64,000 nucleotides of DNA from Escherichia coli (lineage in GTDB: Bacteria; Pseudomonadota; Gammaproteobacteria; Enterobacterales; Enterobacteriaceae). Below are positions 14,501 to 20,500 of this stretch, one piece after another. Numbering within the stretch: position 1 is the first letter of the stretch; each line of letters opens with the position of its first letter. The stretch lies in the NCBI RefSeq assembly GCF_030013205.1, contig NZ_CP122648.1; one strand, written 5' to 3'. The position numbers are program-made.

Positions 14501-17500
14501 GCCAGAAGGCAATCAGCTGGCTGAAAGAGCTGGGCAATCCTTACGCACTAAGCCTGTTTGATGGCGACGGCATGTTAGGACTGGATCTCGGTGTCTATGG
14601 CGCGCCAGAAACGTTCCTCATCGACGGCAACGGCATCATTCGCTATCGCCATGCGGGCGATCTCAATCCTCGCGTCTGGGAAGAAGAGATCAAGCCACTG
14701 TGGGAGAAATACAGTAAGGAGGCCGCACAATGAGGTTTTTATTGGGCGTGCTGATGCTGATGATCTCCGGCTCAGCGCTGGCGACCATCGACGTGTTGCA
14801 GTTTAAGGATGAAGCGCAGGAGCAGCAGTTCCGGCAACTCATTGAAGAACTACGCTGCCCGAAATGCCAGAACAACAGCATTGCCGATTCCAACTCGATG
14901 ATTGCCACCGACCTGCGCCAGAAAGTGTATGAACTGATGCAGGAAGGTAAAAGTAAAAAAGAGATTGTCGATTATATGGTGGCGCGTTACGGCAACTTCG
15001 TCACTTACGATCCGCCGTTAACGCCGCTGACCGTGCTGCTGTGGGTGCTTCCAGTAGTGGCTATTGGCATTGGCGGTTGGGTCATTTACGCCCGCTCGCG
15101 GCGTCGGGTACGCGTGGTGCCGGACGCGTTTCCTGAACAAAGCGTGCCGGAAGGTAAGCGTGCCGGATATATTGTTTATCTGCCGGGTATTGTGGTGGCG
15201 TTAATTGTGGCTGGCGTCAGCTACTACCAGACGGGCAATTATCAGCAGGTGAAAATCTGGCAGCAGGCCACGGCACAGGCTCCGGCGTTACTGGACAGGG
15301 CGCTGGATCCGAAAGCCGATCCGCTCAACGAAGAAGAGATGTCGCGCCTGGCGCTGGGGATGCGTACTCAACTGCAAAAAAATCCGGGAGATATAGAAGG
15401 CTGGATTATGTTGGGCCGCGTTGGCCTGGCGCTGGGTAACGCCAGTATCGCCACCGATGCATACGCTACTGCGTATCGCCTCGATCCGAAAAACAGCGAT
15501 GCTGCACTGGGATACGCTGAAGCGTTGACACGTTCATCTGATCCCAACGACAACCGCCTCGGCGGTGAACTGCTACGTCAGCTGGTGAGAACGGATCATA
15601 GTAATATCCGTGTGTTAAGCATGTATGCGTTTAATGCCTTTGAGCAGCAGCGATTTGGCGAAGCCGTTGCCGCGTGGGAGATGATGTTGAAACTCTTACC
15701 TGCCAACGATACTCGCCGTGCGGTGATTGAACGTAGTATCGCGCAGGCGATGCAACATTTGTCGCCGCAGGAGAGTAAATAATAAGAGGCCCGATGGTGA
15801 TGCCATCGGGCTATTTTTATTGTGCCCCGCGTTGTTGCAGGAACAGAATGGTGGCCGCCACGCGTGAGCGGACATTGAGTTTACGCAGCAGATTGCGAAT
15901 GTGTACTTTTACTGTCTGCTCGGAAATATTCAACACCGAGGCAATCTGTTTATTTGACAGCCCCTGTGCCAGCTCGTGCAGAACATCCAGCTCGCGCTCC
16001 GTCAGCACGCTGAAGGGATCTTCTTCTGCTCCAAACATTTCACGTTCACGTAAGTACTGATTGACGCGTTCGCTAAAGACTTTGCTGCCTTTCGCTCCGG
16101 CACGAATCGCTTCCAGCAACACTTCCGGGTCGCTGTCTTTCAACAGATAACCGTCTGCGCCTGCGTCTATCAGCGCAAAGACATCGCTGGAGGCATCTGA
16201 TACGGTCAGGATAATAATTTGCGCGGTAACGCCATCCCTGCGCAAGGCATTGAGGGTATCCAGGCCACTCATACCTTTCATATTGAGATCCAGCAAGATC
16301 ACGTCGATATCCAGTCTATTCGCCAGATCGATCGCGCTCGCGCCGTCGCCCGCTTCGGCGACCACTTCAAAGCCAGGATCAAGCTCCAGTAACTGACGAA
16401 CACCGCGTCGCATAAGTGGATGATCATCCACAATCATCACCTGAAAAGGCGTTGCTTCAGGCATAGTAGTCTCCTGAGGTTTTATTAGAATCATTATGTT
16501 TGAGCGTAGCGTTGGTAACGCTACCAGGCGCGTGAATGTTACCCCATTTTATGTATGGACATGTAGCGAAAACTACAACCTTGTCGTTCGCTTTGGCATC
16601 ATTTTCATTATAAAGACGGAATTTTGCATCAGCTTCTCATCAAGAAAAACAACTAAAAAATCAATCACAATACTTGTGCATTTCTTTAAACAGTTTTTAA
16701 AAACTGACTCCGGGTATGGAGCTATGGGTATTTTCTTTACCCAATGCTTTTAACAGCAATTAATTTCATAGGATGAAAGCTCAATGCATCAATCTGGTTC
16801 TGTTTCTCTTTGTCGTTCCGCAATATCTGTTCTGGTGGCTACAGCGTTATATTCACCCATAGCATTGGCATCAACAGTTGAGTATGGTGAGACAGTTGAT
16901 GGTGTTGTCCTGGAAAAAGATATCCAGCTGGTTTATGGGACCGCCAATAATACGAAAATCAATCCTGGCGGAGAACAGCATATTAAAGAATTTGGTATAA
17001 GTAGTAATACTGAAATTAACGGCGGGTATCAGTACATTGAAATGAATGGCACCGCAGAATACTCAGTATTAAATGATGGTTATCAAATTGTTCAAATGGG
17101 TGGCGCAGCAAACCAGACTACCCTCAATAATGGTGTGCTACAGGTTTATGGCGCAGCGAATGATACCACCATTAAAGGCGGGCGCTTAATTATTGAAAAA
17201 GATGGGATTACCGTCTTTGCCGCTATCGAAAAGGGAGGATTACTGGAGGTTAAAGAGGGGGGATTAGCATTTGCGGTAGATCAGAAAGCAGGCGGTGCGA
17301 TTAAAACAACCACGCGGGCCATGGAGGTATTCGGAACAAACCGTCTCGGTCAGTTCGATATCAAGGATGGTATTGCTAATAATATGCTGTTGGAAAACGG
17401 CGGAAGTTTGCGAGTTGAAGAAAATGACTTCGCTTATAATACCACTGTGGATAATGGCGGCTTACTGGAGGTTATGGATGGCGGGACTGCAACTGGCGTT

Positions 17501-20500
17501 GATAAAAAAGCAGGCGGAAAATTAATTGTCTCAACGAATGCGCTGGAAGTGAGTGGTACAAACAGTAAAGGCCAATTTAGTATAAAAGATGGTGTGTCCA
17601 AAAATTATGAACTGGATGATGGTTCCGGGCTCATTGTTATGGAGGATACGCAGGCCATTGACACTATCCTTGATGAGCATGCCACTATGCAATCGCTGGG
17701 AAAGGATACTGGTACGAGAGTGCAGGCAAATGCGGTATATGATCTCGGTCGATCAGATCAGAATGGAAGTATAACGTATTCCTCTAAAGCCATCTCTGAA
17801 AATATGGTTATCAACAATGGCCGCGCTAATGTCTGGGCTGGCACGATGGTTAACGTTTCAGTCAGAGGGAATGATGGCATTCTTGAGGTCATGAAGCCGC
17901 AAATAAATTATGCACCCGCTATGTTGGTGGGTAGTGTCGTGGTTTCTGAGGGCGCTTCTTTAAGAACGCATGGTGCCGTGGATACCAGCAAAGCGGATGT
18001 TTCGCTCGAAAATAGCGCATGGACCATCATTGCCGATAACACTACGACGAACCAAAACACTCGCCTCAACTTAGCCAACCTTGCGATGTCCGGCGCAAAT
18101 GTGATTATGATGGCTGAGCCAGTGACTCGTTCATCAGTGACGGCAAGTGCGGAAAATTTCATTACGTTGACCACCAATACCCTGTCGGGAAACGGCAATT
18201 TTTATATGCGTACCGATATGGCTAATCATCAGAGCGATCAGCTCAACGTGACCGGTCAGGCAACAGGTGATTTCAAAATATTTGTGACGGACACAGGGGC
18301 CAGCCCGGCAGCAGGTGATAGCCTTACACTGGTAACAACGGGCGGCGGTGATGCTGCATTTACGTTGGGCAATGCCGGAGGCATTGTTGATATCGGTACG
18401 TATGAATATACCTTGCTGGATAATGGCAACCATAGCTGGAGTCTGGCAGAGAATCGCGCGCAAATTACCCCTTCAACCACTGATGTGCTGAACATGGCAG
18501 CAGCACAACCGCTGGTATTTGATGCAGAACTGTACACCGTGCGTGAGCGTCTTGGTAGCGTAAAAGGCGTTAGTTACGATACGGCGATGTGGAGTTCGGC
18601 AATTAACACCCGCAACAACGTGACCACTGATGCGGGAGCTGGCTTTGAGCAAACATTGACGGGCCTGACGCTCGGTATCGATAGCCGTTTCTCCCGTGAA
18701 GAAAGCAGCACAATTCGCGGCTTGTTCTTTGGTTACTCTCATTCTGATATTGGTTTTGATCGCGGCGGCAAAGGCAATGTCGATAGCTACACCCTGGGGG
18801 CTTATGCCGGTTGGGAGCATCAGAACGGTGCCTATGTTGATGGAGTGGTGAAAGTTGACCGTTTTGCCAACACCATCCATGGCAAGATGGGTAATGGGGC
18901 AACAGCGTTTGGCGATTACAATAGTAACGGCGCGGGTGCTCATGTCGAGAGCGGGTTCCGTTGGGTTGACGGATTGTGGAGTGTTAGACCCTATCTCGCC
19001 TTTACCGGCTTTACCACAGATGGTCAGGACTACACGTTATCAAATGGCATGCGCGCGGATGTGGGAAATACCCGCATATTACGCGCTGAAGCGGGAACGG
19101 CGGTAAGCTATCACATGGACCTGCAAAACGGTACGACGCTGGAACCCTGGCTGAAAGCCGCCGTACGTCAGGAATACGCCGATTCTAACCAGGTGAAAGT
19201 TAATGACGATGGCAAATTTAATAATGATGTGGCTGGAACCCGTGGCGTTTATCAGGCTGGGATAAGGTCATCGTTTACCCCGACGTTAAGCGGTCATTTG
19301 TCAGTCAGTTATGGCAATGGCGCAGGGGTAGAATCGCCGTGGAATTCTCAGGCGGGTGTGGTCTGGACGTTCTGATAACAGAAAATAAACAGGCCGTGAT
19401 GTGTCGCGGTCTGTTTATCGAATTAAATGCAGATATAAAAAAACCAACCTTTACGGTTGGTTTTTTTTGGGATTTTTGGTCGCACGAGAGTATTCAAAAC
19501 ACGCCAATAACCTCTTGATTTAATTGAAGTCGAAAATTTTAAGTCAAAAATCGTATAGCTTAACGTGTAGCTAAAAATGTTTGCTGCAAAAGTATACAAT
19601 TTTAACCGTTATGACTCCCTGTTATCCGTTATCAAGCTGGTGGATGATCATGGATAACCCGTTATGGGAATCCCCATATCGGCATCAGGCCCACCAGCGC
19701 GACGCATTTTTTTAATTTCGCGGGTGTAAAAATTTGACGGGGCGGGCGGTCCCATAAGCAATGGGGGGTAGGGATTTCGATCCCCCCTCCTGAATGCAAT
19801 TTTTCGTATGTGGCTGTGCGTCCACCAGCTACGCCGGAATGGGGTATTCCGTTTCAACGGAACAGGTATGACGAACATGATCGCACCTTCTCCCGAAAAC
19901 GGTGCGACCTCCATAGAGGAAATGCCTATTCAGATCCCCGGTGATTTTCACCATTCAGAATCTGGAGGGTGAGTTTTCCAGTTTTCCCCAATGGGGGATT
20001 CTGGAACAATCAACGGGTTAGCGATTAAGCTGGCGAGTAATTAAACTGCGAAAATTTCGTAGTTTGTGAATATATTCCGGCTTGCTGGTTAACAGTCCTC
20101 AGATGTGAGGGATGTAGCCAGCGCAATTTTGCGTCGTCGGATATATCAACAACTTAGCACAAAAATAAGTCAGGCAGATACAAACCTCAAATTTGAGGTT
20201 TGCTTGTTTATCAACGGGTAAGGATAATCATCTCCCCTTTAAAGCCCCTTCGAAGGGTTACCCGTAGGCTTAATGTAAGGCTTGGCTGTAGCCTTACCGA
20301 ACGCTCCGCTCACCGTCGCGGCCTGTCCGGTTTCTTCCACTGATACGGCCTCACATCATCCTGCTGGTGGCGTTCCTGTTGCAGCACAACGGAAACAGGC
20401 GCTGAACACCTGTTAATTTTGCTTGCAGGTTGTTTGATTCCGGCAATGCTGCGGATCATCTCCAGCATATCGGCTTCGGTGATGGTCATGATTTACACCT

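Follow-up and report, generated by a model that had tools for sequence, protein, structure and literature searches.

Is yejO, known in Escherichia coli K-12 as a pseudogene inactivated by IS5K (PMC11005336; PMC11677980), an intact gene in other strains, and if so, what would its product do? We addressed this question in a 64,000-nt stretch of an E. coli chromosome (the window), which is 99.997% identical over 29.4 kb to pig ETEC strain ETEC4079 (NZ_CP122643.1). With a probability of roughly 85%, positions 16784-19375 of the window hold yejO in intact form, an ancestral gene of an Escherichia core locus located between narP and proL, whose product is a classical (type Va) autotransporter built like AIDA-I and Ag43 and probably a surface adhesin or aggregation factor. 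RefSeq and the literature already record yejO, its intact form and the IS5 lesion of K-12.

The yejO reading frame and predicted protein architecture

The yejO coding sequence (16784-19375, + strand) is a single uninterrupted ORF of 863 codons with an ATG start and one terminal stop. As the initial annotation had read it, the frame runs without internal stop from a signal peptide to a barrel ending in WTF (C-terminus ...VVWTF). RefSeq names the identical protein of ETEC4079 "autotransporter YejO" (WP_063086637.1), and the PGAP annotation of that strain carries no pseudogene flag for it. The gene order, ccmF-dsbE-ccmH-narP / yejO / proL-yejM, is that of K-12. Orthology is indicated both by this position between narP and proL/yejM and by full-length identity with the K-12 gene (b2190), with the difference that an island here separates the yejO terminator from proL. 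K-12 yejO carries the 1.2-kb IS5 element after nt 67, flanked by a 4-bp target duplication, which leaves 22 codons ahead of the element, whereas the window copy is free of it. When K-12 YejO was rebuilt by deleting IS5 and one target copy, a stop-free frame of the same 863-aa length was recovered at the same locus. It aligned with the window gene without gaps over 863 residues, at 97.0% nucleotide and 96.6% amino-acid identity. The alignment proposed as a check bears out the statement of the initial annotation that K-12 yejO is disrupted by an insertion element, and K-12 is without YejO only through the IS5 insertion after codon 22.

All parts of the protein described below are encoded on the + strand. 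The N-terminus (MHQSGSVSLCRSAISVLVATALYSPIALA|STVEY) reads as a Sec-type signal peptide of residues 1-29 (16784-16870), as expected of a type Va autotransporter. R11 is its one positively charged residue, the hydrophobic core is strongest across residues 12-22 (Kyte-Doolittle hydropathy averaging ~2.1 over these 11 residues), and cleavage is predicted behind an A-L-A motif at residues 27-29 (ALA|ST); AF2 confidence is low for residues 1-28, and the beta-helix of the model begins at residue 30. The passenger domain, residues 30-561 (16871-18466), is predicted to be a right-handed beta-helix by the AF2 strand period of ~18-19 residues, Foldseek and phmmer matches, two stretches of Pfam AIDA repeats (E 1.4e-51) and three stretches of the NCBIfam TIGR04415 repeat (66.9 bits vs. 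a cut-off of 30). Imperfect repeats of ~19 residues form the modelled helix, as in passengers of the AIDA-I/Ag43/TibA type; glycine is the commonest residue of the protein (12.3%). Within the passenger, residues 431-555 (18074-18448) correspond to a pertactin-like C-terminal part, the putative autochaperone or junction (PF03212, E 8.8e-45; phmmer match to pertactin 1dab). An alpha-helical linker of the kind that precedes type Va barrels is modelled at residues 563-592 (18470-18559), with AF2 helices at 563-572 and 574-592. It leads into a predicted 12-strand translocator beta-barrel of residues 600-863 (18581-19372), which, again as in type Va proteins, ends in an aromatic residue, F. Evidence for the barrel comes from the autotransporter beta-domain PF03797 (residues 602-841, E 1.2e-45), TIGR01414 (E 1.2e-108; 363.9 bits vs. 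a cut-off of 16), the AF2 model (pLDDT 85.9; barrel at 600-862) and Foldseek matches to the BrkA beta-domain (3qq2, TM 0.90) and to the EspP and AIDA-I barrels.

The internal repetition noted in the initial annotation is present, in diverged form. Direct pairwise comparison and autocorrelation revealed a 74-residue repeat whose copies occupy residues 146-219 (17219-17440) and 220-293 (17441-17662) and share 50% of their residues (E 3e-23); AF2 models this duplicated region with little certainty (residues 165-260). In DNA the repeat recurs at 222 nt, where a stretch of 76 nt aligns at 71% identity, and BLOSUM autocorrelation of the protein peaked at lags 74, 19, 18, 37 and 55. No tandem array was detected at the DNA level by Tandem Repeats Finder on 16700-19450, and a blastp self-comparison of YejO printed no off-diagonal match. 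Exactly one copy is absent from natural alleles, namely those of FXCREC180 (789 aa), P0034, P0080 and P0107, which retain a single copy.

Distribution, decay and selection

A yejO match was found in 5,421 of 5,426 complete E. coli genomes, always on the chromosome, and another genome has an orthologue of 75% identity in matching synteny. For the exact protein there are records on 117 contigs, and the 90% cluster to which it belongs comprises 16,859 members. At most 51% of the 5,426 genomes can carry an intact gene, and 11 of 30 evenly sampled ones do. The strain of the window, which is pig ETEC4079 or a close clonal relative, has kept the ancestral intact state, as have roughly 40-50% of sequenced E. 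coli. Where the initial annotation set this strain against K-12, intactness is not peculiar to it, given the existing RefSeq annotation, the intact copies among the sampled genomes and the confinement of the K-12 IS5 junction to 357 genomes (among the matches listed, 40 of 40 were K-12-type laboratory strains). K-12 is therefore unrepresentative for yejO, and the conclusion that the gene is a mere pseudogene should not be transferred to wild strains.

Loss has nevertheless been frequent. An allele in which W789 is changed to a stop (codon at window 19148-19150, in the barrel) occurs in 1,166 of the 5,426 genomes, and coverage of yejO falls below 80% in another 1,145, mostly to a remnant of ~920 bp. 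Further lesions include IS3, which splits the copy of strain W13-16, a frameshift and a Mu-like prophage. Counted by type, the lesions were IS5, IS3, W789 nonsense, frameshift, double deletion and prophage insertion, with a lost start codon as a possible seventh. Independent losses have been numerous and affect at least half of complete genomes, so yejO is dispensable in many lineages. With about one-fifth of genomes sharing a single nonsense codon and about another fifth below 80% coverage, the locus offers a tidy case of lineage-specific decay of a surface protein. According to Wells et al. (2010), quoted in PMC3426408, commensal and diarrhoeagenic genomes contain YejO and in UPEC it is truncated, and ST131 is reported to be without it (PMC5654935).

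The alleles that remain intact tell of constraint. Among 13 of them, dN/dS was 0.20 (0.09 in the barrel and 0.28 in the passenger), vs. 0.62 within the W789-stop group. At the sequence level, these values show that intact alleles are under purifying selection, and the intact ORF together with the dN/dS of 0.20 argue for a working protein.

Expression, proposed function and the adjacent island

The divergent narP-yejO intergenic region (16465-16783, 319 bp, + strand with respect to yejO) presumably contains the yejO promoter and a ribosome-binding site (AGGA, 16766-16769). It has a GC content of 36% relative to 51% for the window, and is 99% conserved in K-12, in ETEC1748 and in a strain with only a yejO remnant. 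A scan of this region for the sigma-70 consensus gave no match, no long inverted repeat of a fimS/UpaE-like invertible promoter occurs upstream of yejO, and an Rfam search in and near the gene yielded nothing, the only families found being tRNA and the L25 leader. The low GC content and the lack of a consensus promoter make it quite conceivable, though short of probable, that yejO is intact and cryptic, i.e., silenced, for example by H-NS acting on the AT-rich upstream region, of no use to this strain and simply not yet decayed. The frequent independent inactivation of the gene would fit such a history, as would its near-bottom position by transcript detection in K-12 (rank 4501 in an RNA-seq compendium, PMC10392735), although in that strain IS5 cuts the yejO promoter off from the gene. 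However, the low dN/dS of intact alleles, particularly in the barrel, relative to that of the nonsense group suggests that copies were kept working across the divergence of lineages, and silence in the laboratory does not imply silence in the host. No functional or expression work on YejO was found in the searchable literature.

Taking yejO as a working gene, the following route can be proposed by analogy with the autotransporter family. YejO would be exported by Sec, its barrel would be inserted by BAM, and the passenger would be threaded through the barrel to the surface, folding outwards from the C-terminal junction. Once exposed, it could promote adhesion or aggregation. Its expression under laboratory conditions is probably poor, as with other chromosomal autotransporter adhesins of E. 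coli. The strain may, on this analogy, express a functional YejO adhesin. For pig ETEC, an intact and apparently selectively maintained autotransporter of the AIDA type would be a reasonable candidate colonisation factor or vaccine antigen. A more elaborate proposal, which we consider rather doubtful, is that selection on yejO is conflicting. The gene would be kept by purifying selection in some lineages, including the pig ETEC/O139 clone, and destroyed repeatedly elsewhere by at least seven lesion types. YejO would then either promote colonisation of particular niches or be a target of immunity or phages, so that losing it is adaptive, and the one- or two-copy 74-residue repeat would tune passenger length.

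It is improbable that the passenger serves a purpose other than adhesion, such as complement or serum resistance, as in BrkA and Vag8, or an enzymatic activity. Matches among PDB sequences do include Vag8 (residues 459-860, E 1e-33), and the BrkA barrel is matched as well. Yet the Vag8 and BrkA matches are confined to residues 459-863, i.e., the junction and barrel, whereas the N-terminal passenger matches Ag43, TibA and AIDA repeats, and the Pfam search of YejO detected no catalytic domain such as a protease or lipase.

The initial annotation also placed the gene directly next to a satellite integration site. The adjacency is real, as a 13.4-kb satellite-like, phage-related island at tRNA-Pro starts ~100 bp downstream of the yejO stop. 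Between the two lies a hairpin with an A-run on one side and a T-run on the other (19437-19467), a bidirectional intrinsic terminator that is also present in K-12. Outside the gene, the left island boundary is an imperfect copy (TGGTCGCACGAGAG) of the tRNA-Pro 3′ end (19477-19490), and the intact tRNA-Pro(GGG) gene, proL, lies at 32854-32930 (- strand). With the island so near and carrying regulators (a PerC family protein, a ProQ/FinO protein and an HTH protein), it could be supposed that the intactness of yejO is tied to it by co-selection or island regulation. Such a tie is very unlikely: the yejO-island junction occurs in ~6 of 5,426 genomes, the terminator intervenes, and in Shigella flexneri 1c prophage integration between proL and yejO is on record (PMC4924310). 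Moreover, in ETEC1748 and other pig strains proL directly follows a yejO of 100% identity, and the island is missing. Linkage between yejO and the island was rejected on the ground of these identical alleles. Because the island, which uses the proL attachment site, is absent from strains with identical yejO, its adjacency is coincidental. An assembly artefact masking a frameshift can be dismissed, as the same 2,592 bases occur without a break in eight independent complete genomes (beside the IS3-split copy of W13-16), eight more have uninterrupted copies just below an exact match (4782 vs. 4787 bits), and the exact protein recurs on the 117 contigs mentioned above.

Comparison with known autotransporters

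YejO falls short of the curated NCBIfam cut-offs for the Ag43/Cah equivalog (NF033177, 134.7 vs. 1200), AIDA-I (NF033176, 70.6 vs. 1200) and BafA (NF040482, 212.2 vs. 700). It is a separate family, and the closest relatives outside it reach no more than 45% identity. Its junction domain and barrel are nearest to those of the Bordetella proteins pertactin, BrkA and Vag8; their N-terminal passengers are unrelated to that of YejO beyond a generic beta-helix. AIDA-I and TibA, which are glycosylated adhesins of the AIDA type, share with YejO the Pfam AIDA repeats and the TIGR04415 strand-loop-strand repeat, described as an "O-heptosyltransferase target", and TibA (4q1q) matches at E 1.6e-27. In contrast to the situation of AIDA-I and TibA, no heptosyltransferase gene adjoins yejO, the upstream neighbour being narP, and a search for aah/aidA in the first 50 kb of ETEC4079 plasmid unnamed1 found transfer, maintenance and resistance genes only.

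In both structure and sequence, the best match to the passenger is antigen 43 (Flu/Cah; PDB 4KH3, 7KOH and 7KO9), with a phmmer E of 1.9e-37 and a Foldseek E of 6.8e-22 (7koh); in the phmmer comparison with PDB sequences, Ag43 and TibA chains together span E 1e-37 to 1e-27. The likeness lies in a beta-helix with rungs of ~19 residues and in the same type Va layout, at an identity of only 20-24%. yejO lacks the Dam/OxyR phase switch known from agn43, as no GATC was found upstream of the gene. Unlike Ag43, YejO is not island-borne and is encoded by a gene of the core locus.

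The yejO reading frame and its K-12 counterpart

The initial annotation described yejO as an uninterrupted 863-codon gene running from a signal peptide through glycine-rich repeats to a β-barrel ending in WTF, and each part of this description was borne out. The mechanical ORF list gives a single ORF at 16784..19375 (+), 863 aa from an ATG start, and its translation contains only the terminal stop, ends in VVWTF and carries an Autotransporter beta-domain at aa 602-841 (Pfam E 1.2e-45). The N-terminus, MHQSGSVSLCRSAISVLVATALYSPIALA followed by STVEY, has one arginine, an A-L-A motif at residues 27-29 and a hydrophobic core at residues 12-22, where the Kyte-Doolittle mean over 11 residues rises to 2.15; from the sequence, this looks like an ordinary Sec signal peptide. 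Glycine is the commonest residue (12.3%). Tandem Repeats Finder detected no DNA-level array in yejO; a repeat finder returned a 76-nt pair at a spacing of 222 nt and 71% identity, and aa 146-219 align with aa 220-293 at 50% identity, ungapped (E 3e-23). Autocorrelation of the passenger, calculated with a substitution matrix, peaks at lags 74, 19, 18, 37, and 55, indicating a rung of ~19 residues and a four-rung duplication. The copies have diverged and are old.

The statement that an insertion element disrupts the gene in K-12 was also correct. RefSeq features of K-12 C3026 are, in sequence, a 69-bp 5′ fragment, an IS5 transposase, and a yejO fragment "missing N-terminus". When aligned with the K-12 locus by BLAST, nt 1-67 and 64-2592 of the window gene (counted within yejO) flank IS5, and the 4-nt overlap of the halves, at gene nt 64-67, is the IS5 target duplication. 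The rejoined K-12 halves give 2,592 nt and 863 codons with no further lesion, and the resulting protein is 96.6% identical to that of the window. A 40-mer spanning the K-12 junction is present in 357 of 5,426 complete genomes; among the matches listed, 40 of 40 were laboratory strains of K-12 type (e.g., MG1655, W3110, DH5alpha, BW25113, MC4100, J53, and HB101).

Intact and degraded alleles in E. coli

The window yejO is an already known and annotated gene. ETEC4079 (NZ_CP122643.1; pig faeces, Belgium) is 99.997% identical to the window over 29.4 kb, and its yejO is annotated by PGAP as an intact CDS (WP_063086637.1). The identical protein occurs on 117 public contigs under the name "autotransporter YejO", and the 90% cluster holds 16,859 member sequences. 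A chromosomal yejO match was found in 5,421 of the 5,426 complete E. coli genomes, with coverage of at least 80% in 4,281. The window allele itself is present at ~100% identity in 17 complete genomes, all from pig or wild boar and O139:H1 strains among them. One of the 17, W13-16 (wild boar, O139:H1; locus L002, 16954-18284), carries an IS3-family insert at gene nt 949-953 in a yejO otherwise 100% identical to that of the window; here the same clone has lost the gene independently and very recently.

Thirty genomes spaced evenly along the ranking of the 5,426 were all inspected. The 863-aa gene was intact in 11, or ~37% of genomes (exact 95% interval 20-56%, n = 30). In seven, codon 789 had changed from TGG to the stop TGA, and in five of these the ATG start had also become ATT; six had a ~920-bp remnant with two deletions and no barrel, and three an IS insertion (IS5 twice, IS3 once). 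A frameshift, truncation by a Mu-like prophage, and an in-frame deletion that removes one 74-aa repeat (leaving 789 aa) were each seen once. Subtracting from 5,426 the genomes with the TGA codon (1,166), the K-12 junction (357), and low or no coverage (1,145) sets an upper bound for intact yejO of 2,758 genomes (51%).

The stop at codon 789 (window 19148-19150; sampled loci L009, L014, L015, L016, L023, L024, and L026) removes the last 75 barrel residues. The 1,166 genomes, counted by matches to a 40-mer with the TGA codon at its midpoint, represent 21% of the total, in line with the 30-genome sample. From alleles with both the start and stop changes, gene callers derive a 771-aa ORF, and in the 50% library this ORF (P0076) is the YejO cluster representative. 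Exactly one unit of the 222-bp (74-aa) repeat pair at window 17219-17662 is absent in some natural alleles, namely that of FXCREC180 (locus L007, WP_000554212.1) and the alleles P0034, P0080, and P0107. The deletion junction falls within a 68-bp homologous stretch, and RefSeq calls the in-frame 789-aa product intact. The ~920-bp remnant lacks gene nt 473-1476 and 1934-2563 and occurs in AR_0055 (locus L005, 3501-4427) and ~1,100 other genomes. The narP-yejO intergenic region is still 99% conserved, presumably owing to its additional role for narP.

These results agree in outline with Wells et al. (2010), as quoted in PMC3426408, and yejO is reported missing from ST131 (PMC5654935). Taken together, the sample, the genome counts and the literature indicate that intact yejO is common and known, yet far from universal. 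Only the population picture is mildly new: 21% of complete genomes share a nonsense codon, the lesions are of at least seven kinds, and the 74-residue repeat occurs in one or two copies. Part of this is already implied by Wells et al. (2010).

The neighbouring island at tRNA-Pro

Upstream of yejO lie ccmF, dsbE, ccmH, and narP, and downstream lie tRNA-Pro(GGG) (32854-32930) and then yejM, matching the K-12 order narP-yejO-proL-yejM. The mechanical ORF of narP (15817-16494, -) has 225 aa from an upstream ATG vs. 215 aa in RefSeq (15817-16464), a difference of start-codon choice alone in the same sequence. At window 36646-36671 (-), upstream of rplY as expected, Rfam recognises an L25 ribosomal-protein leader (RF03131, 46.9 bits).

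In K-12 and ETEC1748, proL is found ~100 bp past yejO. In the window, the yejO stop codon (19373-19375) is followed by a conserved bidirectional terminator hairpin (19437-19467) and, ~100 bp past the stop, by an imperfect copy of the tRNA 3′ end (19477-19490). The 13.4 kb of foreign DNA beyond (19491-32853) was inserted at the tRNA 3′ end and ends at the intact tRNA-Pro(GGG) at 32854. It encodes a tyrosine integrase with an Arm-DNA-binding domain, an HTH regulator, an Icd-like pseudogene, a RepA/AAA_25 helicase-primase, ProQ/FinO and PerC-family proteins, a NUDIX protein, a DUF2213 protein, a 679-aa lytic-transglycosylase protein, and a small-terminase-like HTH protein. Since capsid, portal, large-terminase, and tail genes were not found in the island, phage satellite seems a reasonable label for this gene set. 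Two adjacent island ORFs (24083-24763 and 24831-25415, -), which PGAP names NUDIX hydrolase and DUF2213, both match PHROG 6216 (545 positions) in swapped order, the upstream ORF covering positions 409-544 and the downstream ORF 115-326. The matching RefSeq record annotates no gene in the ~800 bp at the left end (19491-20308); an ORF of 88 aa lies there at 19648-19914 (-).

The yejO-island junction is present in ~6 complete genomes, all pig ETEC, and other genomes, ETEC1748 among them, have island-related copies at other loci. Moreover, identical yejO alleles exist without the island, and prophage integration into this interval is documented for Shigella flexneri 1c (PMC4924310). We therefore conclude that the island lies next to yejO because of the attachment site in the tRNA, and that this position is functionally meaningless for yejO.

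Function of intact yejO and its relation to known autotransporters

Among 13 intact alleles, mean dN/dS was 0.20. It was 0.28 over residues 1-430, which comprise the signal peptide and N-terminal passenger, 0.13 in the pertactin-like part, and 0.09 across linker and barrel; inside the W789-stop group it was 0.62. These values, together with a 75%-identical orthologue at the same locus of another Escherichia-like genome, point to a working protein. Phase switching is governed by Dam/OxyR in Ag43 and by invertible promoters in some adhesins. As GATC sites and long inverted repeats are absent from the yejO upstream region, neither kind of switch is present at yejO. The 319-bp upstream region has a GC content of 36%, and a scan of it for the sigma-70 consensus gave no match. 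In K-12, where IS5 parts the promoter from the gene, yejO ranks 4501 of ~4,510 genes by the number of RNA-seq data sets detecting its transcript (PMC10392735). The upstream GC content, the sigma-70 scan, and the K-12 rank point to low expression. The initial observation is confirmed and its interpretation is partly supported; on the best reading, yejO encodes a functional autotransporter that probably serves in adhesion or aggregation and is probably repressed in the laboratory.

In addition to the beta-domain, Pfam identified AIDA repeats (E 1.4e-51) and a Pertactin domain (aa 431-555, E 8.8e-45), and NCBIfam an autotransporter barrel (363.9 bits) as well as the strand-loop-strand repeat TIGR04415 in three copies. 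Scores against the NCBIfam equivalog models for Ag43, AIDA-I, and BafA were far under the cut-offs, and when a library clustered at 50% identity was searched, the closest non-YejO proteins did not exceed 45% identity; YejO is a family of its own. By sequence search, the closest solved structures are Ag43 and TibA for the passenger and Vag8, BrkA, and pertactin for the C-terminal half. An AlphaFold2 model built with 60 homologues as input (mean pLDDT 85.9) predicts a β-helix (aa 30-561), helices (aa 563-592), and a barrel (aa 600-862), with low confidence at residues 165-260, the duplicated segment. When this model was compared with the PDB using Foldseek, Ag43 was the top match (E 6.8e-22); the BrkA beta-domain gave a TM of 0.90, and EspP, Hbp, NalP, and the AIDA-I transport unit came next. 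These domain, sequence, and model-based comparisons agree in making YejO a classical type Va autotransporter, structurally of the AIDA-I/Ag43 kind. In type Va secretion, Sec exports the protein, BAM inserts the barrel, and the passenger is threaded through and folds vectorially; YejO would be expected to reach the surface by the same steps.
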